Assembly (NCBI GenBank): GCA_015489315.1
Contig: WFZZ01000138.1
Location: forward strand, 1-63,558
DNA: 63,558 bases
From: Deltaproteobacteria bacterium
Lineage (GTDB): Bacteria > Desulfobacterota > Dissulfuribacteria > Dissulfuribacterales > QOAL01
Direction: 5' to 3'
A program made the position numbers and the translations under genes. The notes under the pieces were generated by a model, which was given only the letters and a program-made list of their open reading frames with translations, was not told the origin of the DNA and did not search any database. Shown here piece after piece: positions 1,395 through 63,558 of this stretch. The number at the start of each line of letters is the position of its first letter. Within the stretch, counting starts at the first letter, position 1.

Positions 1395-1441
1395 AATTAC
1401 AGGGCCCCATCATGGGGGCCCCTTAAAGAGAGAAAAGGGAT

Positions 1442-3322: not shown

Positions 3323-3579
3323 AACAGCTCCTTTTAGAACTTTTTCTTGTTTTTCTAGCTCTTAATCTAATTTTATTATGCGGGTGTTTTCCAAAGGAGC
3401 CTGGAGAGCGTCTGATCAATAAAAAATGCACTGCCTGCCATACCACCAGCCGTATCTACAAAAAGAGCCGCCCCGATGAGGAATGGGATGAAATAATTGA
3501 AAGAATGATTAGACATGGGGCAACCCTTTCTGCACAAGAAAAAAAGACAATTATTAATTACCTTAAAAACAAATACTAA
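3319..3579 (+). CDS. small monohaem c-type cytochrome lipoprotein
   Basis: Single CTACH motif and a signal peptide with LLCGC lipobox. ATGA overlap with the upstream cytochrome gene suggests translational coupling. Confidence 0.7.
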   Translation: MKQLLLELFLVFLALNLILLCGCFPKEPGERLINKKCTACHTTSRIYKKSRPDEEWDEIIERMIRHGATLSAQEKKTIINYLKNKY

Positions 3580-3584
3580 CAAAA

Positions 3585-4139: not shown

Positions 4140-4203
4140 GATCCGCCTCCTTGATAAAAAGGTTGTGGCAAATCCAAATGCCTGATTAGACCAAAATAAA
4201 TTT

Positions 4204-5375: not shown

Positions 5376-5385
5376 TTTCTAATAA

Positions 5386-5414
5386 GACGATTTAGGGGGA
5401 CAAATGTTTAAAAA
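5386..5414 (-). promoter_or_regulatory. ECF-type promoter of the sigma operon (TTTTTAAAC-N16-CGTC)
   Basis: Minus strand reads TTTTTAAAC ATTTGTCCCCCTAAAT CGTC TTATTAGAAA ATG. The same motif occurs at 10604-10631 and 18575-18603. Only 10 nt separate CGTC from the ATG, and there is no SD. Confidence 0.6.
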
Positions 5415-5444
5415 TTTCTTTAAATTAAAAGGAACTCAGTGGCA

Positions 5445-6305
5445 TCATTGCCACCTTTTTTCTTCCTGACTTTTTATGGCAATAAGGGCCTGATGAAAAA
5501 AACAAGGGGGCTTCTTTCCCTTTTTATAAAAGGTTTCATAGATTTCGTAGAGGCTGTCTCTAGCCTCACTTGGCCTTTTGGCATCTAAAAGCAGCTCTAT
5601 TTCTTCCATTCTTAAAGAGATATTATCAGGCTCTTTTTTAAGCTCCTTTTTGATGGCCAAAAGGGCATCATCCATCTGTCCTTTAAGGGCCAGGATTTTT
5701 CTTTGAAAATGGCGGCATAAAGAAACCGGGCTATTTGAATTGGTTATTTGGATGTGCCCGTTTTTTGAAATAACCCTGAATCCATCTACTTCAATGGCCT
5801 TTTCAATATCCTCAAAAAAAACATGGTAATCGCCAGGCAGAAGGGGCGATGAAAGAAGCCAGGAAAGGATAATGGAATTGCTAGGAGATATCTTTTTCAA
5901 ATCTTGACTTAATCGCATTGGCTCCAACTTTTCATCTATTCTTTTTCCTTTTGAATCTTCAATAATAGGGACAAAAAGGACAGGGTTTTTGATTTCCAAA
6001 GTCTTTTCTGGACTAAGATTCGAAATTTCCACATTTATGTAGAGTGGACAGTTCATTCCGATTTTAAGCCATTTTGTTCCATTGGGCCTTATTGATACAA
6101 TTATGAGATTTTCACCGCTTTTATTGAAAGAACTCTCTCTAGTCCCATTTCCCGATTTGCTTGTCACATTGTTTTCAACAGAAGTGGCCGAGTCAGAATA
6201 TCTTTTGGTAAGTCCCCCAAAAATTATCGACGTCATGACGGCTATAACAAGTAAATGAAAACGAAAACCCGTTATCCATGATTTATAAATATCTTTTCTT
6301 GCCAT
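5445..6305 (-). CDS. hypothetical N-terminally anchored envelope protein with a helical C-terminal part
   Basis: One TM (FHLLVIAVMTSIIFGGL). No recognisable catalytic motif. Lies 10 nt downstream of the metzincin-like gene. Confidence 0.6.
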   Translation of the reverse strand: MARKDIYKSWITGFRFHLLVIAVMTSIIFGGLTKRYSDSATSVENNVTSKSGNGTRESSFNKSGENLIIVSIRPNGTKWLKIGMNCPLYINVEISNLSPEKTLEIKNPVLFVPIIEDSKGKRIDEKLEPMRLSQDLKKISPSNSIILSWLLSSPLLPGDYHVFFEDIEKAIEVDGFRVISKNGHIQITNSNSPVSLCRHFQRKILALKGQMDDALLAIKKELKKEPDNISLRMEEIELLLDAKRPSEARDSLYEIYETFYKKGKKPPCFFHQALIAIKSQEEKRWQ

Positions 6306-6315
6306 AATAACATTC

Positions 6316-8814: not shown

Positions 8815-8824
8815 AAAGGCCTGC

Positions 8825-10276
8825 TTATATAGTTGCGTCAAATTCCAAGACCTCTCCCTTTTTTATCTCAAGTCCTGTGGCAGCTGGAAGCGGATCTTGG
8901 ACGCCTTCAACAAAGAGATAGAGGTCGTAGGTCCCTGGTTTTACAATGTACTTTCCTTCAAATTGAATGTTCCTGAAGTGGTCCTTGTAGGCCTCGATTG
9001 CAGGCTTTTTTTCACCTGCCTTTACAAGTTTATAGCCAAATACATTGTTTGAGGATTTCTTGATTCTAAATCCTGTATCAATGTCTATAGCGACGACCTT
9101 ACCTTCGGTTACCTTGATTGCCTTTGCAACAGTTATGGAAGTTCTATCCTGAGTAACTGTGACGTTATAGACCCCTGGCATTATGGCCTTTGGCGCCTGG
9201 ACACAATAGGGATATCCTCCTGTAAGCTTCTGGGTCATGGTTGTTTTGGGTTCATCTGTCTTTTCATAGGTGACGGCCGTTATCAATGGATATTTCATCT
9301 CCTTTGAAAAATTGAGCAAAATGACACCGGGCTTGTAAACCGTGGTCTTTCCCTTATCTATGTGGACATTTCCAACTATAAACTCTCCCACGCCTTCTCT
9401 ATATATACCGCAGCAGAAAGACCGAATTTCGTAATCCCCGCTTAGGAGTGGAAATTTGATGCTTGGTACATAACTATTATGAAACTCCTTACTAGCCGTA
9501 AGCTTTCCTGTCTTTTTGTTGATTACCTTAAGCATAAAGATGCTTCCGCCAACGTTTTTGTCAAATTCAATATCTAGCTTTCCAAGGCCAATGGATATGG
9601 TCTTCTTGGTGCTTTGGGCAGGCTTTATCTTTTGTTCCACCTCTTTTTTCACACTGTTAAGGGCAGAAAGAAGAGAATCTGCATCGGAGGCCGAATAATA
9701 CTTTCCTCCCCCTGCCTTTGCTATGCACATAAGCTGTTTTTTCTCTTCTGGTGAGACATCAAAGCCAATTACATCAAGAACAAACTTAACCCCACTATTT
9801 TTAAGAGATTTTACAGTTCCGCATGGATCTGGCACACAAGTCTCTTTGCCGTCACTTACAAGGATGATGGTGGTTTCCGCCTCGTTTTCCTTGATTACGT
9901 CGGTAACCTTTTTTATTGACTGGGCAATGGGTGTCATGCCCTTGGGAGTGATGTTATCCATTCTTGAAAGAAGCTCATCCCTGCTTGAAGCGCCGGGCTT
10001 TATCAGAATCTCAATATCTGAACAGTCTCCCTTTCTATGATGCCCGTAGGCACTGAGTCCTACCTTTACCTCTTTAGAGATGGCAGGTACTATTTTATGG
10101 ATTACCTCCTTGGCAATATCAATCTTTGCCTTGCCATTAATCTGCCCGTACATAGAGCCTGAGGCATCGAGGATTATCATGATCTGGGGACTATCTGCCA
10201 AGGCCCTGCCCAAAAAAGAAACCATGAAAAAAGACACAAAGAAAAGCCATATTAACTTCCTGCTAATCCTTTCCAT
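8825..10276 (-). CDS. secreted von Willebrand factor A (VWA) domain protein with a beta-rich C-terminal half
   Basis: Signal peptide, then MIDAS DASGSM (DxSxS) in MIILDASGSMYG. Also TPIAQSI and ILVSDGKETC. Confidence 0.8.
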   Translation of the reverse strand: MERISRKLIWLFFVSFFMVSFLGRALADSPQIMIILDASGSMYGQINGKAKIDIAKEVIHKIVPAISKEVKVGLSAYGHHRKGDCSDIEILIKPGASSRDELLSRMDNITPKGMTPIAQSIKKVTDVIKENEAETTIILVSDGKETCVPDPCGTVKSLKNSGVKFVLDVIGFDVSPEEKKQLMCIAKAGGGKYYSASDADSLLSALNSVKKEVEQKIKPAQSTKKTISIGLGKLDIEFDKNVGGSIFMLKVINKKTGKLTASKEFHNSYVPSIKFPLLSGDYEIRSFCCGIYREGVGEFIVGNVHIDKGKTTVYKPGVILLNFSKEMKYPLITAVTYEKTDEPKTTMTQKLTGGYPYCVQAPKAIMPGVYNVTVTQDRTSITVAKAIKVTEGKVVAIDIDTGFRIKKSSNNVFGYKLVKAGEKKPAIEAYKDHFRNIQFEGKYIVKPGTYDLYLFVEGVQDPLPAATGLEIKKGEVLEFDATI

Positions 10277-10300
10277 TTCATTCTCCTTTTTAAAGCAAAA

Positions 10301-10549
10301 TTATTTTGACCAGTGCCCTGGGACCCAGATTCCCATTCTATTAAAATGGCCTGGAACCCAGTGTTTTCCTGTAACTGGAGGGCCAACGTATTTCCAGTGG
10401 CCTGGTATTATCCTTCCATCAACAGTCCTATGTTTTGGAACCCACACAAAATTGGGCCCTGGCTTTGGCGGTCTTGCACTAGCACATCCAACAAATACAA
10501 ATGAAAAAGCCAAAAGTAGGGCTAAAAAGAAGCCTTTTGCTTTATTCAT
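10301..10549 (-). CDS. small lipoprotein with W-[VI]-P-G-H-W repeats (YXWGXW/WXXGXW-repeat type)
   Basis: Lipobox FVGC. Repeats: FVWVPKH..IIPGHW..KHWVPGHF..IWVPGHW. ATG 10549 is preceded by AAGGAGG. The ORF-track start at 10582 is TTG. Confidence 0.7.
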   Translation of the reverse strand: MNKAKGFFLALLLAFSFVFVGCASARPPKPGPNFVWVPKHRTVDGRIIPGHWKYVGPPVTGKHWVPGHFNRMGIWVPGHWSK

Positions 10550-10603
10550 TGTTGCTACCTCCTTGAAGATATTTAAAGCCAAAGGGAATTTTCTAATATC
10601 TTT

Positions 10604-10631
10604 GACGGAAACTTTTGAGAATTTGTTTAAT
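10604..10631 (-). promoter_or_regulatory. ECF-type promoter of the lipoprotein-VWA-metzincin operon (TTAAAC-N17-CGTC)
   Basis: Minus strand reads TAATTAAAC AAATTCTCAAAAGTTTC CGTCAAAG. It lies 55 nt upstream of ATG 10549 and immediately after hairpin 10634-10670. Confidence 0.55.
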
Positions 10632-10633
10632 TA

Positions 10634-10670
10634 CCCGACTCTTTAAATATGAAAGTCTAAAAGAGTCGGG
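10634..10670 (-). terminator. hairpin downstream of the hydrolase gene (likely terminator/insulator)
   Basis: CCCGACTCTTT...AAAGAGTCGGG forms an 11-bp stem with a 15-nt loop. The U-tract is poor. Confidence 0.45.
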
Positions 10671-10680
10671 CGAAAAAGAC

Positions 10681-12303
10681 TTAAGGAATCAGCAAACTAA
10701 TCTTAGGACGAATAATTAGAAGTTGAACACTATATCCAGGTATTAAAAAGGAACTTCCTGACCATGAAGAAGGCGTTTCGCCATTATTTTCTTCATCAAT
10801 TTGATAAATTGTAACAAAATAATCCTTTGAATTTACGCTATTACCATCAATACTGATCTTGTAACTATTGTCACTGGATTCAGGATTTGAAACCAGAACC
10901 GCATATCCTTTTTCCCCCTTTGCCCCTAGGATCCACAATCTTGACCCATCTTCAGCAATGGACGGAAGTGGTGCATTCATGAGTGTAGGGAAATCATTAT
11001 AAATTTTTGACCAAAGCTTGAAGGCATAGGCCGTTGGCTTATAAGTAGCATCTTCATCACCATAAAAAAGCCCTGACCAGCCATGATCTTTATCTCCTGG
11101 AGAGGCATCCGGATTTGATTTCGGATCACTCGCCCTGTAATAAAAGGCCCTTTTAACCCCAGAATATTGAAGGGCAATCCAGGTACCTGTCATCACGGCA
11201 GCACCCTCTGGCCCGTTTTTTAAAGCCAACTGCTCAATCCACGGAAGCTTTTCGAGCTCTCCTGTGAGGACTCCAGTTTGTGTAGCAGTTCCCCATGCAT
11301 CACAAATAATCTCCACATCATCAAAAAAACCTGTTCCTGCCCACGGAACCGAACTAAAATCTCCCTTCCCATTCAAGAGATTTCGATATTGTCTGGCTGC
11401 CATTATGTAATGTTCGGGGTTGTTGCTCCAAAGATGCCATCCTATCCAATCGGGTTTTAGGCCCTGTTCATATAAGTAACTTAAAAATTCAATTGCTGGA
11501 TTATCCTTTATTTGACCATTAATCACTTTAATTGTAGGCACTAAAAAACCTGGACCTCCCACCTTCAAGTGGGGAAAGGTGTCTTTTATTTCTCTAAATG
11601 CCCTTGCCCAAAATTTAATAAATTCTCGATTGCTTCTGTCCCAAAAGTTTTTATTGGGCCATTCAGTATAAATGTCTACATAATTGAGGACATGGCTTTC
11701 TCCATTCCAGTTGTCATATCGCTCTATTATCTTTTTTGCCACAATAATCCAATTGTTTTCCTGAAGTTCGTTTTGGGGTCCGTGAAAATCATGAAGTCTC
11801 AAAGCACATTGATAAGAGCCCCCAATCCTTAAAAAGGGTTCAAAACCGCCATCAATTATTTCCTGAAAAAGCTCGTCACTATCCGTCCAGTAATAATTGG
11901 CTGGATCATTGGCATCACACTCCCAAGACGGATAAACTGATGTATCCGGGCATCTGAAAATACCCTCAATGTCAAGACGATCATCGTAATAATCATTATT
12001 TCTTATTCCTGTTACCCCAATATCTTGAAGCCTTGTTGTAAGATCAGGAGAAGGAGAGTCGGGTGGGACAATGGGACCAGAAATTACGCCTTGAAGAGGC
12101 TTTATTTTTTTACTGATAATAAATTCATTGATTTTAATATCATGGATTACTTTAGAGCCTATCGAGACTTCAACGTCTAAAGTGTCATGTTCTGAGACAT
12201 CTGCATTAAAACTTGGCTGGGCACAATTTCCATTTTTGAAAATGGGAAAATAAAAGAGCAAAAAGGCCAACAGACAGAAAAAAGTAACACGAACGGATTT
12301 CAT
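10681..12303 (-). CDS. secreted TIM-barrel glycoside hydrolase-like protein (clan GH-A-like)
   Basis: Signal peptide after ATG 12303 (RBS AAGGAGG). IYTEWPNKNFW resembles the NEP acid/base strand. The ORF-track start at 12387 is GTG, upstream of the RBS. Confidence 0.55.
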   Translation of the reverse strand: MKSVRVTFFCLLAFLLFYFPIFKNGNCAQPSFNADVSEHDTLDVEVSIGSKVIHDIKINEFIISKKIKPLQGVISGPIVPPDSPSPDLTTRLQDIGVTGIRNNDYYDDRLDIEGIFRCPDTSVYPSWECDANDPANYYWTDSDELFQEIIDGGFEPFLRIGGSYQCALRLHDFHGPQNELQENNWIIVAKKIIERYDNWNGESHVLNYVDIYTEWPNKNFWDRSNREFIKFWARAFREIKDTFPHLKVGGPGFLVPTIKVINGQIKDNPAIEFLSYLYEQGLKPDWIGWHLWSNNPEHYIMAARQYRNLLNGKGDFSSVPWAGTGFFDDVEIICDAWGTATQTGVLTGELEKLPWIEQLALKNGPEGAAVMTGTWIALQYSGVKRAFYYRASDPKSNPDASPGDKDHGWSGLFYGDEDATYKPTAYAFKLWSKIYNDFPTLMNAPLPSIAEDGSRLWILGAKGEKGYAVLVSNPESSDNSYKISIDGNSVNSKDYFVTIYQIDEENNGETPSSWSGSSFLIPGYSVQLLIIRPKISLLIP

Positions 12304-14637: not shown

Positions 14638-17600
14638 CTATTCAACCTTCATAATACATGCATCTATGACAGGTGCTGCTATATCAAAGAGAAGCCTTAT
14701 CACAGGCTTGTAACATTTCATAGCCTTTTCGGAAGCCAAGTATTTAATATCATTATGATAGCTTTTATAGTTCTCTGGAAGACATGGAGGCCATGAATTG
14801 CCACTTTCCCATTCAATTATATTGGTAAACTCCAATGCAAAAATATCACTCAGAGAGGGTTCTCCTGTTCCACAACTTTCAACTGCACATGGACATAGAT
14901 TCTTCATAGTCTCCTTTATACTTTGAGGGTTATTTTCCTCTACTGCAACAATTATATTATTTACTGGCTCTAAAAAACTCTTTAAGGTATTTTTGATAAT
15001 GTTGAAGTTTTTTGTCCCAGTTAGTGCTTCAAGAATAGCTCCTGCCACCGTCTTTGCAACTGCATCTTTTACCACGTAGGATAGCCCCTTTGCCCACTCA
15101 CCAGCACTTACTATTGTACTAAGTGCACTAAATACCTCACCTGACACCCCTGTAAGGAGGCTATCTGTCAAAAGATTATCTAATTTGTCCAGGTCTTTTT
15201 CTTCAATCTTAATTCTTACAATCTCTTTATTTATAGTGTAATCAACATGATATTGGATGGCTGTATTGCCTATATCTGTAAGGCCAAAATCAGGAATACC
15301 CATAGCACCCTTTAGAAAATCAAGGGAACTTATTCCATACCATAGGATGCCATCAAAAGCAGATGTGCTAAACTGACTACCTTTACTTTTTAAATATTTT
15401 TCTGCTTCATCTCCGAAGGAAAAGAATCTATTAAGGTCGACTCCTCTTAAGCTATATAATAAAACCCCCTGTAAGGCCTCGGTTTTATAACTGTTCCATG
15501 AAGAAGGGAAAAACCAAATACCAAATCTCTCTTCTTTTGTATGTTTGGCATTAGCCTCAAGTTCCACCAAAATCAGAGTCGGTTTTTCTATCTTTACTGA
15601 CTTAATACTATCCGGAGATCTAAATAGCTCATCCTCTTTAAGTGTTTTTATTGGTTTCCCTTGGTATACCCTGTCCAAATATATGTAGTTTTCCTCTTTG
15701 GCCTTTCTTATACCGCAGTACACTGAATATTCATCCTCGGCAAACACCTTTGCTACCTTTATATCAGGATAGCCAATTTTATAGGTGACTCCAAAGTACA
15801 ATATGTCATGCCCTTCAGGCATTATATAGATATGATCTGTGATCCTTATAAGATTCAAAACGTCTTTGATCTCACATCTTTTAACATCCTTGAGTGGACC
15901 CTTATAATAAGATTCCAGGTTAAATACCATGCCTACAAACTTTTTAAGGGTCACTTCAAGAGTCTTTTTTTTTCGTCTCTCAAGTGCAATCTCCCCATGA
16001 TAAGGCATGTAACCCACTTTCCAAATAAAAATATCGTACTTTCCAGGAGACAAGGTGGAATAATCAAGATATGAAAAATCAGATCCTACCTTTTTTACTA
16101 TGATATTAGCATTATTTATCTGGTTCCCATCATCATCTTTTATTACAAATTTAAGGCCTGCCTCCTCATCCACCCCCATTACAAATGTGGGGGGACTGTA
16201 TCTATAACCATATCGTGCATCAAAAAAGAGGGAGACCTTTTTAGTAAATGGTCCGTATCTAAGGATAAGATTCAGAGGTTTTTCGGAAAGACCTGGGGAG
16301 ATACCACTTACAATAATTCCATTTCCGACCCTTTGGTCTTTTTTTGAGGGCTTATCTGTCCTCCAGTGGGGGCCTTTAAAAGATATTTGAAGCTTATCTG
16401 TAATATTTTCTCCATTTTCTGTAAAAATCTTTAGCCTGTTCAGGTCATATTTATCTATCTCAAGAGGAATCTTGCCAGTATCCCGGTCCTTAAATTCAAT
16501 GGAAAAGTAATACTTAGATTCTATTGTAAGATTGTCACTTATACTACTTTCTGCATGTCCCCATTTAGAATCAAGACTAACTGTAAAAGAACGGACAATC
16601 TTATATCCATCCCATTTTACCTCTACATCCCTGGCCAATATGTTTCCATATATGGAAAACGAACTGCCATTTCTGCTAATTATTTTTGGCAAGATATCTG
16701 TCCATGTCCGACCTTTTATTGAAGGTCTTATTCCTTTTGTTTTTACTGTCCATTTTAGCCCATCAATATCTTTATCCAGTTTGTTGTCTATAATGCCATC
16801 TATGTTAAATACCCACGGGTCACGGTTTCTTTTATCATTTTCCAAATGGATGCTCAAAACATTTTGAGACTTTTTTATAGTCACAGGATATCTTGAAATA
16901 ATAGGACCCAATTTGAAGATAAGATGGGCCGTCTCCTCAGAGGCTTTGGTATTCGGTGTATGCCATATATAGGCCTGATTACTGTGGAAGATGCTACCCT
17001 TATCCACATCTATCGTAAGCTCATCCAGCCCATACTTACAATTTCCTCTAATATCCACCCTGGTATCGGTATCTTCATAAAGAACGTCAGGTTCATTAAA
17101 GGTGGGTGAAAAGCTTATATCTACCGGAATCCAGCCAGGAGTTGATGCCAAAAAGGAGTAAATCCCAAGGCTGGCTTTTTTATCATCTGCCGGTTCGCCT
17201 CTATTAAAAGAAAGTATGTAAACCCTATTGTTATGAATTTTAACAAACTTCGTAATATATTTTTCTGGGAAAAGATAAAGGCCCTTGATCTTTCCATCTG
17301 AAAGGGAATATTTTAATCCATTAGAGCCATCAAAATCTATTAACAGCCGCTCTCCAGTCCCGAAATTTATATAGTGCCCATTATATGGAGACAGATTGGC
17401 AATAGATGGAAGGACAAACGATGTATCGTCATATTCGACTGTCCAGTAAGGATTATTATCAGTAACTATGTGTCTAAATACTATAAGGTGCTCTTCATCT
17501 ACTATCTTTACATTTTCAATATCCTGACCAGATATCTTTTTTATAATATTTCCACTGGTATCTATAAGCAGATAATGGGTCTTTGAAGGATTTATCCCTG

Positions 17601-18450
17601 CCTGTATCATAAAAAGAGAGGCTTTTGAGGATGTACCAACTTCTTTAAACCTTATAAATCTATCATTATTAAGGAGTTCCAAAAGGGAAATATCTTTTAT
17701 ATGGGTACCATCTCTCTTATAAAGTTTAAGTATCCAATTACCTGTTTGGGCCTGGGTCAAAAGACCAAAAATTGGAGCTCCAGGCAAAAATGATATATTA
17801 CCTGTCCCAAGCGTAATAGTTTCTCCTGTTACTACATCCTTTAATAAATAGCTTCCTCCATCATAGACTAAACATTTTGTCTCTGTGACAAAACGATGAG
17901 ATGGAAGCTTTTTATCCAGAAGATCGTATGTTTCAACATCCCCATTTTGGGTCCTATACACAAAGAGTTTTTTTGAAGAACTGTTAAATATCATAATTTT
18001 ACTATCATCTGATTTTAGTATAACTGTGCATGGAAGGGGCCTGGTGGTTTCAGCACCTGTGGCAAGTTCAACCCTGTGGATGGTTATAGAATGTTCATCA
18101 CCTTTTTTAGAGATATAGCTTAAATATCCATCTTTAATACTTAAATGTCCTGCCCAGGGAAGATATTTTGTATCTTTTCCTTTAGAGAAGGAGACCTCAT
18201 AGGTCTTCTTTCCATTATCTAAATTCACAATACATACCACTATCTTGTAAAAATCTGGATCGTCCTTGGTCAATTTATATAGCACAGCCATATAGCTGCC
18301 CTTTGTGAGAAGGGTAGCTACGTTTATATGAATGTCTCTTTCTCCTGTATAAAGTGTGGCGACTTTATCTATAGGTGGTGAAAAACCCCAGGATATGCTG
18401 CCAATAAATAAAAGGAGTGATACCAAAGAAGAAAAGGAATATTTTTTCAT
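14638..18450 (-). CDS. 1270-aa secreted hypothetical protein, no recognisable domain
   Basis: Uninterrupted ORF with a signal peptide (MKKYSFSSLVSLLLFIGSISWG). Beta-rich N-terminal two thirds and a Cys-containing C-terminal region. Confidence 0.7.
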   Translation of the reverse strand: MKKYSFSSLVSLLLFIGSISWGFSPPIDKVATLYTGERDIHINVATLLTKGSYMAVLYKLTKDDPDFYKIVVCIVNLDNGKKTYEVSFSKGKDTKYLPWAGHLSIKDGYLSYISKKGDEHSITIHRVELATGAETTRPLPCTVILKSDDSKIMIFNSSSKKLFVYRTQNGDVETYDLLDKKLPSHRFVTETKCLVYDGGSYLLKDVVTGETITLGTGNISFLPGAPIFGLLTQAQTGNWILKLYKRDGTHIKDISLLELLNNDRFIRFKEVGTSSKASLFMIQAGINPSKTHYLLIDTSGNIIKKISGQDIENVKIVDEEHLIVFRHIVTDNNPYWTVEYDDTSFVLPSIANLSPYNGHYINFGTGERLLIDFDGSNGLKYSLSDGKIKGLYLFPEKYITKFVKIHNNRVYILSFNRGEPADDKKASLGIYSFLASTPGWIPVDISFSPTFNEPDVLYEDTDTRVDIRGNCKYGLDELTIDVDKGSIFHSNQAYIWHTPNTKASEETAHLIFKLGPIISRYPVTIKKSQNVLSIHLENDKRNRDPWVFNIDGIIDNKLDKDIDGLKWTVKTKGIRPSIKGRTWTDILPKIISRNGSSFSIYGNILARDVEVKWDGYKIVRSFTVSLDSKWGHAESSISDNLTIESKYYFSIEFKDRDTGKIPLEIDKYDLNRLKIFTENGENITDKLQISFKGPHWRTDKPSKKDQRVGNGIIVSGISPGLSEKPLNLILRYGPFTKKVSLFFDARYGYRYSPPTFVMGVDEEAGLKFVIKDDDGNQINNANIIVKKVGSDFSYLDYSTLSPGKYDIFIWKVGYMPYHGEIALERRKKKTLEVTLKKFVGMVFNLESYYKGPLKDVKRCEIKDVLNLIRITDHIYIMPEGHDILYFGVTYKIGYPDIKVAKVFAEDEYSVYCGIRKAKEENYIYLDRVYQGKPIKTLKEDELFRSPDSIKSVKIEKPTLILVELEANAKHTKEERFGIWFFPSSWNSYKTEALQGVLLYSLRGVDLNRFFSFGDEAEKYLKSKGSQFSTSAFDGILWYGISSLDFLKGAMGIPDFGLTDIGNTAIQYHVDYTINKEIVRIKIEEKDLDKLDNLLTDSLLTGVSGEVFSALSTIVSAGEWAKGLSYVVKDAVAKTVAGAILEALTGTKNFNIIKNTLKSFLEPVNNIIVAVEENNPQSIKETMKNLCPCAVESCGTGEPSLSDIFALEFTNIIEWESGNSWPPCLPENYKSYHNDIKYLASEKAMKCYKPVIRLLFDIAAPVIDACIMKVE

Positions 18451-26203: not shown

Positions 26204-26398
26204 GCCCCTATTCAAAGAAATTGAGGTGGTTGTAGCCTTCCAATCAATCCCCTTCTTTCTTTGTTAATCAAGTCACTTAGTTTGGATTCAGAAGTACCTT
26301 CAAAGTGGATCTTCCCTCTTTGAGGCTTTTCGAACCAGTAAGTGCAACAAAATGGGTCGAAACACCCAAAGAATAATTTTAAAAAGGAGGAAGATCTC

Positions 26399-26593
26399 AT
26401 GAAGGGAACAGTAAAATGGTTTAATGATCAAAAGGGCTTTGGTTTTATTTCACAGGACCAAGGGCCAGATGTCTTTGTCCATTATACAGCAATTCAAGGA
26501 GATGGTTTTAAGTCCCTTGAAGAGGGCCAGACTGTTGAGTTTGACATTACTGAAGGTCCAAAGGGCCCTCAGGCATCAAATGTAAGGGCATAA
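26399..26593 (+). CDS. cspA: cold-shock protein (CspA family)
   Basis: [17 protein letters not shown]...DVFVHYTAI carries the RNP1/RNP2 motifs. RBS AAGGAGG. The ORF-track start at 26342 lies upstream of the RBS. Confidence 0.92.
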
Positions 26594-26665: not shown

Positions 26666-26938
26666 ATGAAACTTTATATTGGAAATCTTGCCTATAATGT
26701 TCAGGAAGACGAAGTTAGAAAGATGCTTGAAGAATTTGGCCCCCTTGACTCTTTTGATTGGGTTACTGACAAATACACTGGAAAGTCCAGGGGTTTTTGT
26801 TTTGCAGAGATGAATAACTCAAATGCAGATACTGCCATTAAGGCCTTAAATGGTAAGGAATTTCATGGCCGCTTTTTAAAAATAAATGAAGCAAGGGCAA
26901 AAAAGGGAAGAAACAAAAGGCGGAGGCGTTCCTGGTAA
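26666..26938 (+). CDS. RRM-type RNA-binding protein
   Basis: KLYIGNLAY (RNP2) and RGFCFAEM (RNP1), with an Arg-rich tail. Confidence 0.85.
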   Translation: MKLYIGNLAYNVQEDEVRKMLEEFGPLDSFDWVTDKYTGKSRGFCFAEMNNSNADTAIKALNGKEFHGRFLKINEARAKKGRNKRRRRSW

Positions 26939-42863: not shown

Positions 42864-42969
42864 ATTAAAATCTTCTTGAGGATTGCCATGTCTTAAATCA
42901 GAGAATATCATATTCCAGCCCCAAAGGGAAACAGAGCAAACAAAACTTTTTGTCTCTAGGAAAAGGGTT

Positions 42970-44043
42970 ATGGAAGAAAAAGACAAATCAAAATCTCTTT
43001 ATGCACAGGCTGGTGTTGATATTGACAAGGCAAATAGGATAGTTGAAGAAATAAAAGAGACAGTAACCTCGACCTATACCAAAGGAGTCATTACTGAGAT
43101 AGGAGGTTTTGCAGGCCTTTTTGCCCTTGATAAGGAAAAATTCAAAGAACCGGTCCTTGTTTCTTCAACCGACGGAGTTGGCACAAAGCTAAAGATTGCC
43201 TTCATGATGGATATGCACAAAACAGTTGGCATTGACCTTGTGGCTATGTGTGTAAATGACATTGCTGTAACCGGTGCTACTCCCCTTTTCTTTTTAGACT
43301 ATTTTGCCACAGGAAAACTTAAAGAAGAGGTCACAAAGGATGTGATTTCAGGTATTGCCCAGGGCTGCAAGCAGGCAGGCTGTGCCCTTATTGGAGGAGA
43401 GACTGCAGAGATGCCTGGCATGTATCCTGAGGGAGAATATGACCTTGCTGGCTTTTCGGTTGGAGTAGTGGAAAGAGAAGAAATCATTGACGGTTCTGAT
43501 ATTTCCGTTGACCATGACCTTATTGGTATCTCCTCTTCAGGTCTTCACAGTAACGGCTATTCCCTTGTAAGAAAGATTTTTTTTAAGGACTTGGGGTTAG
43601 GAATAGGAGATAAGATTGAAGAACTGTCATCAAAAACAGTTGGGGAACTTTTGATTGAACCTACAAAGATTTATGTGCCTATCATATTGAATCTCTTAAA
43701 AAGATTTAAGATACACGGAATTGTTCATATTACAGGTGGAGGCTTTCAGGATAATATCCCAAGAATCCTCCCAGAAAAATGTAAGGCAGTAATTGATAAA
43801 GATGCATGGAAACCCCTTCCAATTTTTAAGTTTATCAAAGAGAAGGGGAATGTACCTGAAGAAGAAATGCTTAGAACCTTTAACTGTGGTATAGGTTTAA
43901 TTCTTATCGTCCCGCCAACTGAAACAAAAGAGATGCTTCTACAGCTTGAGGCCCTTGGCGAAAAGGCTTATGTAGTTGGGAAGATAGAAGAAAGAGACAC
44001 GAATGAACCCTCAGTAATCTTTAAGGGAGGCCCGCTTTTTTGA
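42970..44043 (+). CDS. purM: phosphoribosylformylglycinamidine cyclo-ligase (AIR synthetase)
   Basis: LYAQAGVDIDKAN, STDGVGTKL and GGETAEMPG. Confidence 0.92.
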   Translation: MEEKDKSKSLYAQAGVDIDKANRIVEEIKETVTSTYTKGVITEIGGFAGLFALDKEKFKEPVLVSSTDGVGTKLKIAFMMDMHKTVGIDLVAMCVNDIAVTGATPLFFLDYFATGKLKEEVTKDVISGIAQGCKQAGCALIGGETAEMPGMYPEGEYDLAGFSVGVVEREEIIDGSDISVDHDLIGISSSGLHSNGYSLVRKIFFKDLGLGIGDKIEELSSKTVGELLIEPTKIYVPIILNLLKRFKIHGIVHITGGGFQDNIPRILPEKCKAVIDKDAWKPLPIFKFIKEKGNVPEEEMLRTFNCGIGLILIVPPTETKEMLLQLEALGEKAYVVGKIEERDTNEPSVIFKGGPLF

Positions 44044-50827: not shown

Positions 50828-51280
50828 ATGATAATTCTGGAAGATCTCCTTTATACAGAGGAACATATATGGGTTAAACCTGATAGCGACCAGGAAAAGG
50901 CAATTATAGGTATCACAGACTACGGCCAGGAGAGGATTGGTGCAATTACATCCATTGACCTTCCCAGCCCTGGAGATGAATTTGTTGAGGCCGACTCCTT
51001 TGCCACTATTGAAAACAGTGTCGGAGAAGTTACTGAGCTCCTTTGTCCTATATCAGGAAGGGTCTTGACTGTAAATGAGATGCTGATGGATACACCAGAG
51101 TCAATAAATGATGACCCTTATGATGACGGCTGGATCATGGTTATGGAAATTGCCCAGCCAGAAGAGCTTGATGATCTTATGTCCCCGGAAGATTATGAAA
51201 AATATGTGGAAGAGCTAAAAATAAAGGATGAAGAAATGCTCCAAGAAGAAGACGAAGATGTTCTGGAGGTTGAAGAATAA
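50828..51280 (+). CDS. GcvH-like lipoyl-domain protein lacking the lipoyl-lysine, with an acidic tail
   Basis: YTEEHIWV, GITDYGQE and PISG match GcvH. Gly65 sits where the conserved Lys is expected (ENSVGEVTEL). There is no Lys between residues 25 and 124. Confidence 0.75.
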   Translation: MIILEDLLYTEEHIWVKPDSDQEKAIIGITDYGQERIGAITSIDLPSPGDEFVEADSFATIENSVGEVTELLCPISGRVLTVNEMLMDTPESINDDPYDDGWIMVMEIAQPEELDDLMSPEDYEKYVEELKIKDEEMLQEEDEDVLEVEE

Positions 51281-52227
51281 TGGCAAAGGTGGCCTTTTTA
51301 TTTCCTGGGCAGGGTTCCCAATATATTGGCATGGGGAAAAAACTCCTGGATGAAGATCAAAGTGCAAATTCTATCTTTAAAGAGGCCGAAAGGATTACCG
51401 GCATCTCTATAAAATCTCTTTGTCTAAATGGTCCTATGGAAGAACTTACAAGGACCGTGAACCTCCAACCCTCACTTACAACACTTGAAATCGCCCTTTC
51501 AAACCATTTGATGGAAAGGGGAATCGAACCAGATGCAGTATCAGGCCATAGCCTAGGTGAGTATCCAGCCCTATGGATATCTGGTGTCCTCAATCTTTCA
51601 TCATGTCTTCACCTTGTAAAAGAAAGGGGACGGCTTATGGACATGGCATCTGAAAAAAATCCAGGTGCCATGGCTGCCATAATAGGAATGGAAGCAAAGG
51701 ATTTAAGATCTTTAATAGATGAAATTTCTGAATATGGAAAAAAGGGCGTTCTGAGCCTTGCAAATCATAACTCAAGGGAACAGATTGTTGCAACCGGTGA
51801 AAAGGGACTTATAAATGACCTTTGTAAAAAGGTAAAAGAGATAGGTAAAAGGGCCATTCCCCTAAAAGTTTCTGGGGCATACCACAGCCCACTTATGAAG
51901 GAGGCTTCAAAGGCCTTTGAAAAGACTTTACAAAATGTCACCTTTAATTCACCTAAATTTGCCTTTTACTCCAATGTAACAGCAGCACCAGAAAAAGACC
52001 CGGAAAGAATCAAACAACTTATGGCAGAACAAATCTATTCCCAAGTCCTTTGGTATGACATCATTAATAACATGGTGTCAGAAGGTATTGATACCTTTAT
52101 TGAAGTTGGCCCCAAAAGGGTTCTAGCCAACTTGGTGAAAAAGTGTATAGATCCTCAAGGGGTAAAGATTTTGAATTTTGAATCTCCAGATGACATGGAT
52201 GAAATCCAAGCTGCAATAAGGAGTTAA
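51280..52227 (+). CDS. fabD: malonyl-CoA:ACP transacylase
   Basis: FPGQGSQYIGMG and GHSLGEY. Confidence 0.92.
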   Translation: MAKVAFLFPGQGSQYIGMGKKLLDEDQSANSIFKEAERITGISIKSLCLNGPMEELTRTVNLQPSLTTLEIALSNHLMERGIEPDAVSGHSLGEYPALWISGVLNLSSCLHLVKERGRLMDMASEKNPGAMAAIIGMEAKDLRSLIDEISEYGKKGVLSLANHNSREQIVATGEKGLINDLCKKVKEIGKRAIPLKVSGAYHSPLMKEASKAFEKTLQNVTFNSPKFAFYSNVTAAPEKDPERIKQLMAEQIYSQVLWYDIINNMVSEGIDTFIEVGPKRVLANLVKKCIDPQGVKILNFESPDDMDEIQAAIRS

Positions 52228-52232: not shown

Positions 52233-52433
52233 ATGTTTTTCTTTGGAAAAAGGCCCAAGCTTAATATAAAATGCAAAATCTGTGGAGATGAACTTGAACT
52301 TTGCAGACGGTGAAGAATTGTGGCCTTGAGGTGCCAAGGCTGTGGAAAATTCTTCTCCATAAGGGATTATGCGGATGAAATGACTGATGAACTGGCCGAA
52401 CTTTTGGCCTTTACACGGGTTGATAGGATCTAA
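52233..52433 (+). CDS. candidate small Cys-pair selenoprotein (66 codons, in-frame UGA at 52311-52313)
   Basis: AAGGAG lies 9 nt upstream of ATG 52233. Translation: MFFFGKRPKLNIKCKICGDELELCRR-U-RIVALRCQGCGKFFSIRDYADEMTDELAELLAFTRVDRI. The UGA completes a CRRU motif between CKIC and CQGC, and a hairpin follows. Confidence 0.5.
52318..52345 (+). promoter_or_regulatory. SECIS-like hairpin downstream of the in-frame UGA
   Basis: Core stem GCCUUG (52323-52328) pairs with CAAGGC (52335-52340), with loop AGGUGC. The stem can be extended by G-U pairs. The core starts 10 nt after the UGA. Confidence 0.4.
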
Positions 52434-57619: not shown

Positions 57620-58705
57620 ATGGCCAAAATAGATGCATTCTTTAAACTTTTACATGAAAAGGGTGGGTCGGACCTTCATATGGTTGCTGGTTCTCCGCCA
57701 GTAATAAGAATCAGAGGGGATATCCAGCGGGTAAAATACAAGGTTCTGGACAATGACGAATTAAAGTCCATGCTCTATGAAATAGCCCCTGAAGATAAAA
57801 TAAAACAGTTTGAGGAAACAGGAGATGTTGACTTTGGTTATGAGGTCCCTGGACTTGCACGTTATCGTGCCAATTACTTCATGCAAAAAAATGGAGTTGG
57901 TGCAGTCTTTAGGGAAATTCCCAGCAAGATTCTATCTGCAGAGCAGCTTGGACTTCCAGAGGTAATGACCAAGCTTGCCATGCTTCCAAGAGGACTTGTT
58001 TTAGTAACAGGGCCTACAGGAAGTGGTAAGTCCACAACCCTTGCGGCCATTTTGGATCATGCCAATAGAAACAGGAAGGACCACATCATCACCATTGAGG
58101 ATCCCATTGAATTTGTCCATGAACACAAGGGATGTCTTGTCAATCACAGGGAGGTCGGTACCCATACTAAATCATTCAGTGCAGCACTTAGAGGGGCCCT
58201 TCGTGAAGACCCTGATATTATACTTGTTGGTGAAATGAGGGACCTTGAAACCATTTCCCTTGCCATTGAAGCAGCCATGACCGGTCATCTGGTCATGGGG
58301 ACCCTGCATACAATCAGTGCCCACAAAACCGTTGATAGAATTATAGAGATATTCCCTACCCATCAACAGCCGCAGGTTCGAGCAACACTTGCAGATGCCA
58401 TAAGGGCTGTCATTTCACAAACCATGTTTAAAAGAATTGACATTCCAGGAAGGTGTGTGGCCTTTGAAATCATGATTGCAACCCCTGCAGTAAGAAATCT
58501 CATAAGGGAAGGCAAGACCTTTCAAATACCTTCAATTATGCAGACAGGGAAAAAATATGGGATGCAGACCCTTGATGACGCCATAATGGAACTTTTGCAA
58601 AAGGGCTGGATTGATCCAGATGAGGCCTACGCCAAATGTAATGAAAAGGCGAAATTTAAACCCTTTGCCAGAAGCGCACCAGCTGACTTTACAGAGGTAG
58701 CATAG
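57620..58705 (+). CDS. pilT: type IV pilus retraction ATPase PilT
   Basis: GPTGSGKSTTLAA, IILVGEMRD and AVRNLIREGK. Confidence 0.9.
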   Translation: MAKIDAFFKLLHEKGGSDLHMVAGSPPVIRIRGDIQRVKYKVLDNDELKSMLYEIAPEDKIKQFEETGDVDFGYEVPGLARYRANYFMQKNGVGAVFREIPSKILSAEQLGLPEVMTKLAMLPRGLVLVTGPTGSGKSTTLAAILDHANRNRKDHIITIEDPIEFVHEHKGCLVNHREVGTHTKSFSAALRGALREDPDIILVGEMRDLETISLAIEAAMTGHLVMGTLHTISAHKTVDRIIEIFPTHQQPQVRATLADAIRAVISQTMFKRIDIPGRCVAFEIMIATPAVRNLIREGKTFQIPSIMQTGKKYGMQTLDDAIMELLQKGWIDPDEAYAKCNEKAKFKPFARSAPADFTEVA

Positions 58706-58707
58706 CC

Positions 58708-59877
58708 ATGAGACGAGCTGAGCTAAATGAAATCATCCAGGAAATGCTTACATCTCATCCTAGAATTTCAGACCTAAATTTCACAGTAGGACGTCCCTGC
58801 CAAGTTGCTGCCGATGGCAAACTTCATCTTTCAGGTCCTGAGCTTTTTACAAAAAATCTTGTCCCCTATCAGACCGAACAATTGGCCCTCGGTCTTATAG
58901 ACAACGATAGAAGGCTTTTAGCAGACCTTTTTAGGCACGGTTCCTGTGACTTTTCATATCAAATAGATGATGGGACCCGCTTTCGTGTAAATGTATTTTC
59001 CCAAAAAGGGGCCTATAGCATTGTAATGAGACGCCTTGAAAGCAAGGTACCCTCCATTGATGAGCTCGGTCTTCCTGATTGCTTCAAAAAGATGGCCAGA
59101 GAAAAAAATGGCATCATCCTTTTTACTGGAGCCACTGGAACTGGTAAAACCACATCCCTTGCGGCAATACTGAATGAAATCAACCGAATGGAACCTGTAC
59201 ACGTGATTACCCTGGAAGACCCCGTTGAATATGTTCATACTTCTGTAAAGGCCACTTTTAACCAAAGAGAACTTGGACAGGATTTTGACACTTTTGCCAA
59301 TGGTCTAAGGGCTGCCCTAAGACAAGCCCCCCATGTAATTCTTGTTGGTGAAATAAGGGATAGAGAGACCATGGAAATAGCACTAAATGCCTCAGAAACA
59401 GGGCATCTGGTATTTAGTACCCTTCATACAGTAAGCGCCGGACACACTATTAACAGAATACTTGGAATGTTCACTACCGAAGAAGAAAGACAGATTCGAT
59501 TTAGACTTGCAGATTCCCTCAGATGGATTGTTGGACAGCGGCTGCTACCAAAGAAACAGGGGGGGAGAATTGCTGTTTTTGAAATTCTTCAGAACAATGT
59601 AAGGGTTAAAGACAGCATTCTTCACGGTGAAAGGGAAGGAAAGACCTTTTACGAAATCATAGAATCAGGCGTTGCCTTTGACATGAAGACCTTTGATCAA
59701 CATATTGTAGAGATATTTAAAGAAGGCCTAATAGATGAAGAAACAGCCCTTGCCTATGCAAGTAATCGATCCAAGGTCCGTCAAGGAATTGACAAAATAA
59801 AAGCGGCAAGAGGCGAAGAGACGTCAGATATTGGCTCTCTTGAGATAGAAGATGAATTCACCTTCAAGGCATATTAA
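58708..59877 (+). CDS. second PilT/PilU-family hexameric ATPase
   Basis: GATGTGKTTSLAA, VILVGEIRD and TLHT. Confidence 0.85.
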   Translation: MRRAELNEIIQEMLTSHPRISDLNFTVGRPCQVAADGKLHLSGPELFTKNLVPYQTEQLALGLIDNDRRLLADLFRHGSCDFSYQIDDGTRFRVNVFSQKGAYSIVMRRLESKVPSIDELGLPDCFKKMAREKNGIILFTGATGTGKTTSLAAILNEINRMEPVHVITLEDPVEYVHTSVKATFNQRELGQDFDTFANGLRAALRQAPHVILVGEIRDRETMEIALNASETGHLVFSTLHTVSAGHTINRILGMFTTEEERQIRFRLADSLRWIVGQRLLPKKQGGRIAVFEILQNNVRVKDSILHGEREGKTFYEIIESGVAFDMKTFDQHIVEIFKEGLIDEETALAYASNRSKVRQGIDKIKAARGEETSDIGSLEIEDEFTFKAY

Positions 59878-59888: not shown

Positions 59889-60518
59889 ATGGAAATTATT
59901 TGTAGCCAATGTAACAAAAAATACTCTATAGACGAAAGAAAACTCCCACAAAATGGGAAGGTATATGTAAGATGTGTATCATGTAACAACAAGATCGAAA
60001 TCAACATTGGCGGTTTAGAAACCATTTCTAGTAATTCATCTGGATATTCAAAAAGACCCCTTGAATTTTTTGACTCTGATAAAAAGACAGCTCTTATTTA
60101 TTGTAAGGAGCCTCAAGCCCTAGTAGAGATACAAAAGCAATTAAAAACGCTGGATTTTCATTCTATTGAAATAAAAAATGTCGAGGATATAAAACATTAC
60201 TTCAGATTTAACACCTTTGATTTGGTCTTGCTGTATCAACACGCCCCTGATATGGACCAGGATCTTAAGGAAGTCCTTTTTTTCATACACAATATGCAAC
60301 CTAGTATTAGAAGAAGATGTCTAGTGCTCTACTGCTATCTTGGTGGTAACCGTTATGACCTTTTTGATGCATTTTCAAGGGGAGTAGATAGATGCATAAA
60401 TCCTATGGATATAAGAACCTTTACCAAGATTGTTCCGGAGCTTTTGAATGAAAAAGACGCCAACTACAAAATATTTTTTAAGTGCAAGGAACGTGTTGAA
60501 GAAGGACTTATCATTTAA
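59889..60518 (+). CDS. MJ0042-type zinc-ribbon protein fused to a receiver-like domain lacking the phospho-acceptor Asp
   Basis: N-terminus has CSQC...CVSC. The receiver-like body has TALIYCKEP in place of the acidic pair and FDLVLLYQH in place of DLVLLD. Confidence 0.55.
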   Translation: MEIICSQCNKKYSIDERKLPQNGKVYVRCVSCNNKIEINIGGLETISSNSSGYSKRPLEFFDSDKKTALIYCKEPQALVEIQKQLKTLDFHSIEIKNVEDIKHYFRFNTFDLVLLYQHAPDMDQDLKEVLFFIHNMQPSIRRRCLVLYCYLGGNRYDLFDAFSRGVDRCINPMDIRTFTKIVPELLNEKDANYKIFFKCKERVEEGLII

Positions 60519-62370: not shown

Positions 62371-63558
62371 ATGATCCATGTGGTAGGTTTTAATTATTTT
62401 TTCACAAGCAAGGACCTTGAAAAAATACTTTCCAAATCAAAGAAGATATTTTGCACTAAAAGATTTTGGCCTCATTTCCAACACCATTCTGAAAAACTCG
62501 CCAACCTTGTTCCCATTGAAGATGCAATAAAAACAATAAAAAATGACAGCAACTCAACCTACACCATTATAGCCTCAGGAGATCCACTTTTTTTTGGCAT
62601 TGGCAAAAGGCTACTAAAAGAATTTTATGAAAAAGACCTTTTCTTTCATCCAGCCTTGACCACTGTCCAGCTTGTTTCTTCTAGATTCAAAATCCCTTGG
62701 GATGATATGAAAGTCATCAGCCTTCATGGCCGAAATAGAACATTAATGCCCCTAATTAAAAAGATATTAAAAGATTCTCCTTTTAAGGTTGGGGTCTTTA
62801 CAGACAATGAGTTCACGCCTGATTTCATCTGCAGGTCTCTTTTAAAAATTGGCCTTTGCTCTGCAAGGGTTTTGGTGGCACAAGATATCGGAGGCGAAAA
62901 TGAGGCATTTTTTGACCTAGATATAAAAGAAGCAGCAGAAATTTCCTTTCATCCACTAAACTTCATGATTCTTACGGGGGAGCATAATAGAAACAGGCTT
63001 GGCTTAGGACTTCCTGATGACTTTTTCCTCCACGAAAGGGGACTGATTACCAAATCACCTATAAGGACCATCTGTCTGTCAAAATTAAACCTGCCAGAAC
63101 AAGGGGTCCTTTGGGATATTGGCGCAGGAAGCGGTTCTATTTCCATTGAAGCATCCTTAATGAAACCAGGGCTAAACATCTTTTCTGTTGAAAAAGATGA
63201 AAAACGCATATCTTTAATAGAAAAAAACCGCGAAAAGACCCTTTCCCTTAACATTGAAATAAATAAAAATGAAGCACCTGAAGGGCTAGATTATCTTCCT
63301 AATCCAGATCGCATTTTTGTAGGCGGAGGCCTTAGTAAACAGGGGTTACTTGAATATCTTATTAAGAGGTTAAAAAAAGATGGCATTCTTGTGGCAACTA
63401 CAATTCTGCTAGAGAGTCTAAACAGGCTCTTAGAATTTTGTGAAAGAAAGGGGCTTAAGTTTCACGCCCAACAAATTGAAATTAGAGAAATCTCTCCCCT
63501 TGGCAAGGGCCATATGGCAAAATCTTCAAACCCTATAACCGTCTTTACCATTTATAAA
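62371..63558 (+). CDS. cobL: precorrin-6Y / cobalt-precorrin-6B-7 C5,C15-methyltransferase (decarboxylating), fused CbiE-CbiT (CobL); 3'-partial
   Basis: Read by hand: 396 codons stay open to the window end, so the ORF track lacks it. ASGDPLFFGIG (CbiE) and WDIGAGSGSISIE (CbiT SAM motif). Confidence 0.8.
   Translation, partial: MIHVVGFNYFFTSKDLEKILSKSKKIFCTKRFWPHFQHHSEKLANLVPIEDAIKTIKNDSNSTYTIIASGDPLFFGIGKRLLKEFYEKDLFFHPALTTVQLVSSRFKIPWDDMKVISLHGRNRTLMPLIKKILKDSPFKVGVFTDNEFTPDFICRSLLKIGLCSARVLVAQDIGGENEAFFDLDIKEAAEISFHPLNFMILTGEHNRNRLGLGLPDDFFLHERGLITKSPIRTICLSKLNLPEQGVLWDIGAGSGSISIEASLMKPGLNIFSVEKDEKRISLIEKNREKTLSLNIEINKNEAPEGLDYLPNPDRIFVGGGLSKQGLLEYLIKRLKKDGILVATTILLESLNRLLEFCERKGLKFHAQQIEIREISPLGKGHMAKSSNPITVFTIYK

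Follow-up and report, generated by a model that had tools for sequence, protein, structure and literature searches.

Introduction

The OS_HP3 family of small selenoproteins was first reported in 2007 from two TGA-containing genes of the Olavius delta1 and delta4 symbionts, with predicted selenocysteine insertion sequence (SECIS) elements and without a known cysteine homolog (PMC1976440), and it has remained uncharacterized since. This family of Zhang and Gladyshev is cataloged in NCBIfam as NF041197, "dual CXXC motif small (seleno)protein", and a review lists the selenoprotein with the motif RxU (PMC13188914). In 2025, deep-Sep was reported to have missed a single known selenoprotein in the genomes on which it was tested, namely the OS_HP3 protein of Desulfosarcina widdelii PP31 (PMC12013277). 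The published model of the bacterial SECIS (bSECIS) specifies a loop of 3 to 9 nt, a stem of 4 to 16 bp, a G in the first two loop positions, a spacing of 16 to 37 nt, and a minimum free energy (MFE) of −7.5 kcal/mol or lower (PMC13188914). Here we analyze a 63,558-nt stretch of DNA from a Deltaproteobacteria bacterium (GCA_015489315.1, contig WFZZ01000138.1; hereafter, the window), in which an open reading frame (ORF) of 66 codons with an in-frame UGA, at 52233 to 52433 of the plus strand, is very probably a genuine, unannotated selenoprotein gene of the NF041197/OS_HP3 family.

An ORF with an In-Frame UGA Belongs to the NF041197/OS_HP3 Family

The end of fabD (52227) and the end of the convergent Polysacc_deac_2 (yibQ-like) ORF (52430) are separated by a gap of 202 nt. 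In this gap, one frame runs from an ATG at 52233 over 26 codons to a TGA at 52311 to 52313 and then over 39 further codons to a TAA at 52431 to 52433 (Table 1). When rechecked on the sequence, all coordinates given in the initial annotation, which had proposed a candidate small selenoprotein here, were exact (ribosome binding site, ATG, TGA, TAA, and gap), as was its read-through peptide. Most loci of the window's clade have a purine run resembling a Shine–Dalgarno (SD) sequence at the corresponding position before their start codon (ATG or GTG). By our own estimate, an open extension of 39 codons arises by chance with a frequency of ∼8% at 40% GC, and taken alone it is weak evidence. The candidate is the sole TGA-split ORF of the window that neither lies under a larger gene in another frame nor is obvious antisense noise, and a scan of the window and related loci for other TGA-split ORFs returned family members and noise, nothing else. 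One such ORF on the minus strand, at 62724 to 63290, was rejected as antisense to a plus-strand ORF that runs off the window end; from its sequence, we take this plus-strand ORF to be CobL-like. TGA is the terminator of 13 of the 47 window genes and is thus not reassigned.

The 201-nt ORF, including its TGA, is identical in ENA ERZ23495249 scaffold_405 and in NCBI JALUFD010000597.1, neither of which has a gene call there, and the TGA is retained in the metagenome-assembled genome (MAG) JALXCD01, which is 96.7% identical over the region. Indeed, the gene is absent from the gene calls of all assemblies examined. Window positions 1 to 11864 and 41.5 to 63.5 kb were compared with the contigs of related loci L037 to L041. 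Where compared, the window is 99.95 to 99.99% identical at the nucleotide level to contigs of ERZ23495249, GCA_027052375.1 (JALUFD01), and Logan SRR10312501, and it is 92 to 97% identical to GCA_026991135.1 (JALXCD01). It derives from a MAG population of an uncultured Deltaproteobacteria bacterium.

With Cys placed at the UGA, the peptide scored 56.2 bits against NF041197 (curated cutoff 40), in a match that spans profile positions 1 to 53 of 53 on residues 14 to 66. With X in that column the score fell by 7.7 bits to 48.5, showing that the model expects Cys at the UGA column. Representatives of all family clades also scored above the cutoff. The peptide carries the two CXXC motifs of the family (C14-x2-C17 and C34-x2-C37), which are invariant in alignments A5 and A6, and between them a single selenocysteine (Sec) or Cys position in an RxU context (R25-R26-U27); the invariant positions are C14, C17, U/C27, C34, and C37. 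The initial annotation had pointed to a RefSeq family named along the lines of "dual CXXC motif small (seleno)protein", and this was borne out by the match above cutoff over the full profile. The gene belongs to an already cataloged family; the earlier call of a selenoprotein was right, and the family is not new.

The family is small, with 105 clusters (50% identity) at E ≤ 0.001 among 1.84 billion proteins. A single-sequence search of a word-indexed protein database returned no match; the family proteins were retrieved with an alignment query. Similar to other NF041197/OS_HP3 proteins, the window's clade has two CXXC motifs with one Sec/Cys between them in an RxU context, a length of 53 to 70 residues, and a SECIS-like hairpin right after the UGA, and it is found in Thermodesulfobacteriota of the sulfate-reducer type. 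It differs in a 13-residue N-terminal extension (MF[FY]F...) and in a Cys three residues before the Sec (U-3), and it lacks the C-terminal Cys found in the majority of the remaining Sec forms. No difference excludes membership. Whereas the 2007 study described OS_HP3 without Cys homologs (PMC1976440), many were found in the present analysis.

The UGA Column Is TGA or Cys, and the Downstream Codons Are Conserved

About 70 related loci (designated by L numbers) came from locus scans, which covered species-representative genomes as well as metagenomes; the later scan used alignment A2, A5 being too diverse. A TGA stands at exactly the UGA column in about 49 distinct homologous sequences, from Deltaproteobacteria, Desulfobacterales, and Thermodesulfobacteriota MAGs and from Nitrospirota (Thermodesulfovibrionia, Magnetobacterium, and Sulfobium). 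A Cys codon (TGY) occupies the column in loci L011, L019 to L021, L023, L055, and L076, and Cys is found there in about 100 full-length database proteins, several of which carry the NCBI name of the NF041197 family. Thus, the column was TGA or TGY in all homologs examined. Two database proteins, P0003 and P0133, show Trp at the Sec column (IGWKSV), probably a TGA translated by the gene caller with another code table.

Compared with seven relatives of the same clade, the 39 codons downstream of the TGA gave proportions of nonsynonymous differences (pN) of 0.07 to 0.22 and of synonymous differences (pS) of 0.67 to 0.91, values indicating that these codons are under strong purifying selection. 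The codon right after the TGA encodes Arg in every relative compared. A GTG at 52320, which could serve as the start of a 37-aa ORF, is GTT, GTA, or ACA in relatives, and hence there is no conserved internal start after the UGA. The check proposed in the initial annotation, whether homologs carry Cys or UGA at this column and conserve the 39 downstream residues, therefore came out in favor of a selenoprotein, with TGA or Cys in the homologs and in-frame conservation beyond. On the alignments, comparative conservation across related loci is the decisive evidence for the gene, and the in-frame UGA most likely encodes Sec.

A SECIS-Like Hairpin Follows the UGA and Is Conserved by Compensatory Changes

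The RNA directly downstream of the UGA can form a hairpin with the stem GCCUUG (52323 to 52328)/CAAGGC (52335 to 52340), the loop AGGUGC (52329 to 52334), and an additional G-U pair (52322/52341). The G-G-U of the loop lies 20 to 22 nt from the U of the UGA. The folding energy is −20.5 kcal/mol for the 61-nt region (z = −2.9 relative to shuffled sequences) and −8.1 kcal/mol for the hairpin alone, whose spacing is 15 nt; its core stem of 6 to 7 bp grows to 11 pairs in the hairpin scan through more G-U and weak pairs. Because ∼1% of the 2367 TGA triplets of the window are followed by an equally or more stable SECIS-like perfect hairpin, so that ∼23 are expected by chance, the hairpin on its own is not decisive. 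The window's MFE fold also shows an extended lower stem, GAAGAAUU/AAUUCUUC, which was not counted in the element, as it does not appear in the MFE folds of other relatives or of L004, which is near-identical and represents the same locus as L001.

Comparison across the clade lends the hairpin more weight. The six-pair stem (columns 13 to 18 with 25 to 30, counted from the U of the UGA) is 98.9% paired in 15 distinct clade sequences. Compensatory changes occur at two stem pairs (U-A to C-G in four sequences and G-C to U-A in one), and the covariation score was reached by 1 of 500 shuffles. Synonymous choice in the hairpin is likewise restricted: in eight lineages, codons +4 to +9 are GCC (eight of eight), TTG (seven, with one CTG), AGG (eight), TGT (seven, with one TGC), CAA (seven, with one CAG), and GGC (eight), and the TTG to CTG exception is accompanied by CAA to CAG. 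Conserved Leu, Arg, Gly, and Val residues elsewhere in the gene use three to five synonymous codons. The SECIS-like hairpin of the initial annotation was thus recovered with the same stem, loop, and GGU position; its conservation is shown in addition by the compensatory changes and by the fixed choice of synonymous codons.

The Nitrospirota-type clade has another hairpin, GCUGCAU-GGA-AUGCGGC (columns 20 to 26 with 30 to 36), 7 nt further downstream. It is 94.1% paired in 34 sequences, with compensatory changes at three pairs and a score reached by none of 500 shuffles. For this comparison we used window positions 52311 to 52358 and loci L012, L013, L022 to L035, and L056 to L081, each over 48 nt past the TGA. 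One family thus shows two SECIS placements: the Thermodesulfobacteriota clade has its hairpin, with the loop GGUG, over A-L-R-C-Q-G, and the Nitrospirota-type clade has its own, with the loop GGA, over x-C-M-E-C-G. The mean energy of the best hairpin was −12.7 kcal/mol for Sec forms of the window's clade, −7.5 for Sec forms of the other clade, and −1.8 for Cys forms.

Similar to bacterial SECIS elements of the Escherichia coli fdhF type, the element is a coding-region hairpin that immediately follows the UGA, and its small apical loop has a G and then G/U near its start (PMC13188914). The window hairpin lies within the loop, stem, loop-G, and energy limits of the bSECIS model (below −7.5 kcal/mol), and the loop of its relatives is GGUG. 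It differs from the fdhF type in having no sequence similarity, no Rfam match, and no evident bulged U, and its spacing of 15 to 16 nt is at or just below the lower limit. From UGA to apical loop, the window has a distance of 15 nt. Of 15 clade members, 11 have 16 nt, and most sequences of the other clade have 22 to 23 nt. The window's 15-nt spacing and its AGGUGC loop result from an A-C mismatch (Cys codon UGC, not UGU) that opens the GGUG loop of its relatives. The fdhF loop is GGUC, and the GU of the window's element lies ∼2 nt nearer the UGA than that of fdhF.

The Candidate Cysteine Partner of Sec Differs between Clades

The initial annotation had seen a third cysteine-type pair, CRR-U, in the peptide. 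This pair is present in the window; however, it is not a feature of the family and is derived in the Thermodesulfobacteriota clade. There, 13 distinct sequences have a Cys at U-3 (C24 of the window protein, codon at 52302 to 52304) and a C-terminal tail without Cys (TRVDRI; window tail at 52416 to 52430). The remaining Sec forms lack a Cys at U-3 and carry G, T, S, A, or Y at U-1. Among all Sec forms, 13 have the U-3 Cys only, 28 have the C-terminal Cys (R[PS]C[DN]R) only, 8 have neither, and none has both. This distribution, which rests on few evolutionary events, suggests that the U-3 Cys and the C-terminal Cys may be alternative resolving cysteines for a selenenylsulfide. Loci L053 and L054 combine the window-type SECIS with the C-terminal Cys.

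A Zinc-Ribbon Fold with Sec in a Hairpin Turn Is Predicted

To gain insight into the structure of the product, we used an AlphaFold2 model of the Cys homolog P0001 (55 aa, 40% identical, alignment of 95 sequences), which had a predicted local distance difference test (pLDDT) score of 81.5. The model has strands at residues 9 to 14, 19 to 23, and 29 to 31 and helices at 32 to 35 and 41 to 48; the U/C residue, 16, falls within the turn that joins strand 1 to strand 2, and the helices correspond to the acidic C-terminal segment of the window protein. The top Foldseek matches were all zinc ribbons (ZifS 8yoz, RPC10/Rpb9, topoisomerase I, NudC, and eIF2-beta). A PDB sequence search gave generic zinc-finger and zinc-ribbon matches, nothing specific, and a literature search on ZifS gave nothing relevant. 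Pfam matches of the peptide were sub-threshold zinc ribbons alone, with Zn_ribbon_6 at 17.4 bits (cutoff 25). The model suggests that the product is a zinc ribbon whose β-hairpin carries Sec at its turn; the four knuckle cysteines probably hold a structural metal. Sec27 would sit between Arg residues at the hairpin turn, at a distance from the knuckles, a placement with respect to the metal site that is predicted from strand order alone.

With small zinc-ribbon proteins such as ZifS (TTHA0897, PDB 8yoz), the RPC10/Rpb9 subunits of RNA polymerase, and the zinc domain of HypA, the predicted fold shares a three-stranded sheet and two CXXC knuckles, and the HypA zinc region gave repeated sub-threshold hidden Markov model (HMM) matches to the family. 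However, the matches to zinc ribbons are weak (E ≥ 0.19 and the Zn_ribbon_6 score above), and in ZifS, RPC10/Rpb9, and HypA no fifth Cys/Sec is conserved at the turn of the hairpin. Another point of comparison is the Rdx family (SelW, SelT, SelH, and SelV), in which the same CxxU motif suggests a selenenylsulfide redox couple. Rdx proteins are thioredoxin-like, whereas the window peptide has no thioredoxin-like or Rdx Pfam match and is a predicted zinc ribbon; CxxU in NF041197 is clade-specific and not family-wide, and the likeness to Rdx is one of chemistry and not of membership. Since the Cys three residues before Sec gives CxxU in the window's clade, the chemistry is most likely that of a selenol/thiol redox or transfer center on a zinc-ribbon scaffold.

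These elements can be combined into a proposed mechanism. The gene, probably cotranscribed with fabD, would be translated from its own SD sequence and ATG. At the UGA at 52311, the hairpin at 52322 to 52341 with its apical GGU would act as a bacterial SECIS and, following the established bacterial Sec pathway, recruit the SelB–GTP–Sec-tRNASec complex, upon which Sec would be inserted and 39 further codons translated. The 66-residue product would be a zinc ribbon in which C14/C17 and C34/C37 probably hold a structural metal; Sec27, beside conserved Arg residues, would occupy the β-hairpin turn between the knuckles, and an acidic helix would follow. A further step would be to regard the window's clade as a functionally distinct variant of the family, in which a CxxU center in the zinc-ribbon hairpin turn replaced the C-terminal Cys and became fixed behind fabD (eight loci), the protein serving as a selenol/thiol redox or acyl/sulfur-transfer partner for fatty-acid or lipoate (gcvH) metabolism. 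We regard this proposal as speculative and unlikely; if true, it would show that the resolving Cys and the SECIS hairpin can both shift in evolution.

Weighing of Alternative Explanations

Several results count against a Sec-containing zinc ribbon encoded at this locus. Neither selA, selB, nor selD was found in the 63.5-kb window; tRNASec was not found in the window, which has no tRNA gene of any kind, in 26 related loci, or in L082; and nothing Sec-related was recognized among the ORFs of an additional 10 kb of the sister MAG (JALXCD010000103.1), outside the range of the window. Since about 74 kb of one genome was covered, the lack of Sec machinery neither supports nor refutes the assignment. 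The extra 10 kb presumably holds, as judged by reading its ORFs, waaA, lpxK, an outer-membrane-receptor-like gene, dnaJ, moaC, and dksA. An AIRS/AIRS_C ORF at 42883 to 44040, at one point suspected to be selD, is purM (TIGR00878, 454 bits). In addition, an Rfam search returned noise and no family match, and the 15-nt spacing of the window hairpin is one below the 16 to 37 nt of the bSECIS model. The best Foldseek match had an E value of only 0.19, and the modeled protein was a 40%-identical Cys homolog and not the window protein itself. The neighborhood is not conserved across the family, with no shared partner found among related loci, and the literature found on OS_HP3 offers predictions and no experimental proof of Sec insertion.

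The lack of Sec machinery in the ∼74 kb covered would fit a UGA that is read as Trp or Cys by a near-cognate or suppressor tRNA, with the hairpin aiding read-through or pausing without SelB, and the Trp at this column in P0003 and P0133 would too, were it not most likely a product of the gene caller's code table. However, in members without TGA the column is strictly Cys, the classic Sec/Cys signature; the hairpin has the G-G/U apical loop typical of bacterial SECIS elements, with a spacing near their lower limit; the lineages with the TGA form (Thermodesulfobacteriota and Nitrospirota) include those described as most selenoprotein-rich; and the family is curated as a selenoprotein. Decoding as a standard amino acid is thus very unlikely. 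The hairpin might also be a mere by-product of encoding A-L-R-C-Q-G, with no function at the RNA level, given that the stem lies wholly inside a highly conserved peptide that includes a zinc-ligand Cys; four of its six pairs never vary and are uninformative either way. Yet synonymous sites are fixed in exactly the six hairpin codons and near saturation elsewhere, and the exceptions are compensatory, with TTG to CTG joined by CAA to CAG in L008 and L052 and CTT joined by AAG, which also changes Gln to Lys, in L053. Moreover, the hairpin of the other clade lies 7 nt further downstream over different codons, and the hairpins of Cys forms are much weaker. This leaves a purely coding origin of the stem very unlikely indeed.

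That the UGA is a true stop, ending a 26-residue peptide or marking a decaying pseudogene with a downstream frame that is fortuitous or separately translated, would agree with the lack of a gene call in three assemblies, with a GTG at 52320 that could begin a 37-aa ORF, and with the ∼8% chance that we estimated for the 39-codon extension. Against this stand strong purifying selection on the codons beyond the UGA, in frame with those before it, the lack of conservation of the GTG, and the continuous ORFs of the Cys-form homologs, and decay of a pseudogene is incompatible with a TGA conserved in about 49 diverged lineages. Termination at the UGA is, as far as sequence comparison can tell, already contradicted by the comparative data and is extremely improbable. 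An assembly or sequencing error that turned a Cys codon (TGY) into TGA would be a natural concern with metagenome assemblies, the more so as the three near-identical records may share the same reads. Because the TGA is identical in two other records and kept in the separate, 96.7%-identical JALXCD01, and recurs in dozens of diverged genomes from unrelated studies, error is excluded for practical purposes. Our preferred reading is therefore that of a UGA decoded as Sec in a member of the NF041197/OS_HP3 family.

Because the gene was uncalled in the assemblies examined and deep-Sep missed the OS_HP3 protein of D. widdelii (PMC12013277), small selenoproteins of this kind are systematically undercounted. 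The two SECIS placements, the alternative Cys partner, and the many Cys homologs are modest additions to published knowledge, and the general principles of selenoproteins are unchanged by them. As starting points for experiments, the analysis offers many Cys homologs, two SECIS placements, mutually exclusive candidate resolving cysteines, and a zinc-ribbon model with Sec in a turn.

Genomic Context

The order aroA-moaA-gcvH-fabD-X, in which X is the selenoprotein gene directly behind fabD, is found in the window and in seven related loci; in the window, 5 nt separate the fabD stop from the ATG. Cotranscription of the two genes is probable from this arrangement, and promoter-like matches in the region were no more common than in shuffled sequence. 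The TAA of the selenoprotein gene overlaps the stop codon of the convergent Polysacc_deac_2 gene, which leaves no space for an intergenic terminator. The genes downstream of X vary among the related loci. In other clades, the neighbors were PurH-like, DUF3786, and DsbC-like genes and, in two loci, divergent FabG/KAS genes.

Table 1. Coordinates of the selenoprotein ORF, its predicted elements, and the upstream gene in the window
Feature	Position	Strand	Basis or remark
fabD, conserved upstream neighbor	51280-52227	+	Pfam Acyl_transf_1
Shine–Dalgarno AAGGAG	52218-52223	+	Read directly; 9 nt upstream of ATG 52233
Complete 66-codon ORF, ATG...UGA (Sec27)...TAA, NF041197/OS_HP3 member, very probable selenoprotein gene	52233-52433	+	Translation, profile match, homologous loci
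First CXXC knuckle, C14-K-I-C17	52272-52283	+	C14 and C17 invariant in 23 family members and 95 Cys-form proteins
C24-R-R-U27 (CxxU)	52302-52313	+	Cys at U-3 in 13 distinct sequences, window's clade only
In-frame UGA, predicted Sec codon (residue 27)	52311-52313	+	TGA/Cys column in homologs
SECIS-like hairpin, codons A31-L-R-C-Q-G36	52322-52341	+	Fold, pairing, fixed synonymous codons
Second CXXC knuckle, C34-Q-G-C37	52332-52343	+	C34 and C37 invariant (23 members, 95 Cys forms); first codon within the SECIS loop
Acidic C-terminal segment, DYADEMTDELAELLAF	52365-52412	+	E45 and Y46 nearly invariant; helical in model of homolog
TAA stop	52431-52433	+	Overlaps minus-strand stop TAG (52430-52432) of convergent Polysacc_deac_2 gene

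Other parts of the window yielded minor observations. GcvH, the lipoyl carrier, is encoded at 50828 to 51280 by a gene that is flanked by moaA and fabD and has no further glycine-cleavage genes in its vicinity. On the minus strand between 3585 and 18450, there are large ORFs without a Pfam match, of 1270 aa (14638 to 18450), 841 aa (6316 to 8841), 286 aa (5445 to 6305), and 210 to 231 aa (3585 to 4836), in a block that adjoins genes for an extracytoplasmic function (ECF) sigma factor (4833 to 5375) and a von Willebrand factor A (vWA) protein (8825 to 10276). The otherwise empty region from 26.1 to 27.0 kb contains small genes that we take, from reading their sequences, to encode a cold-shock-like protein (26342 to 26593) and an RNA-binding protein of the RNA recognition motif (RRM) type (26666 to 26938). 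Finally, positions 59889 to 60518, after two tandem genes for PilT-family ATPases (57620 to 59877), encode a 209-aa protein with an N-terminal CXXC zinc finger of the MJ0042 type (TIGR02098).

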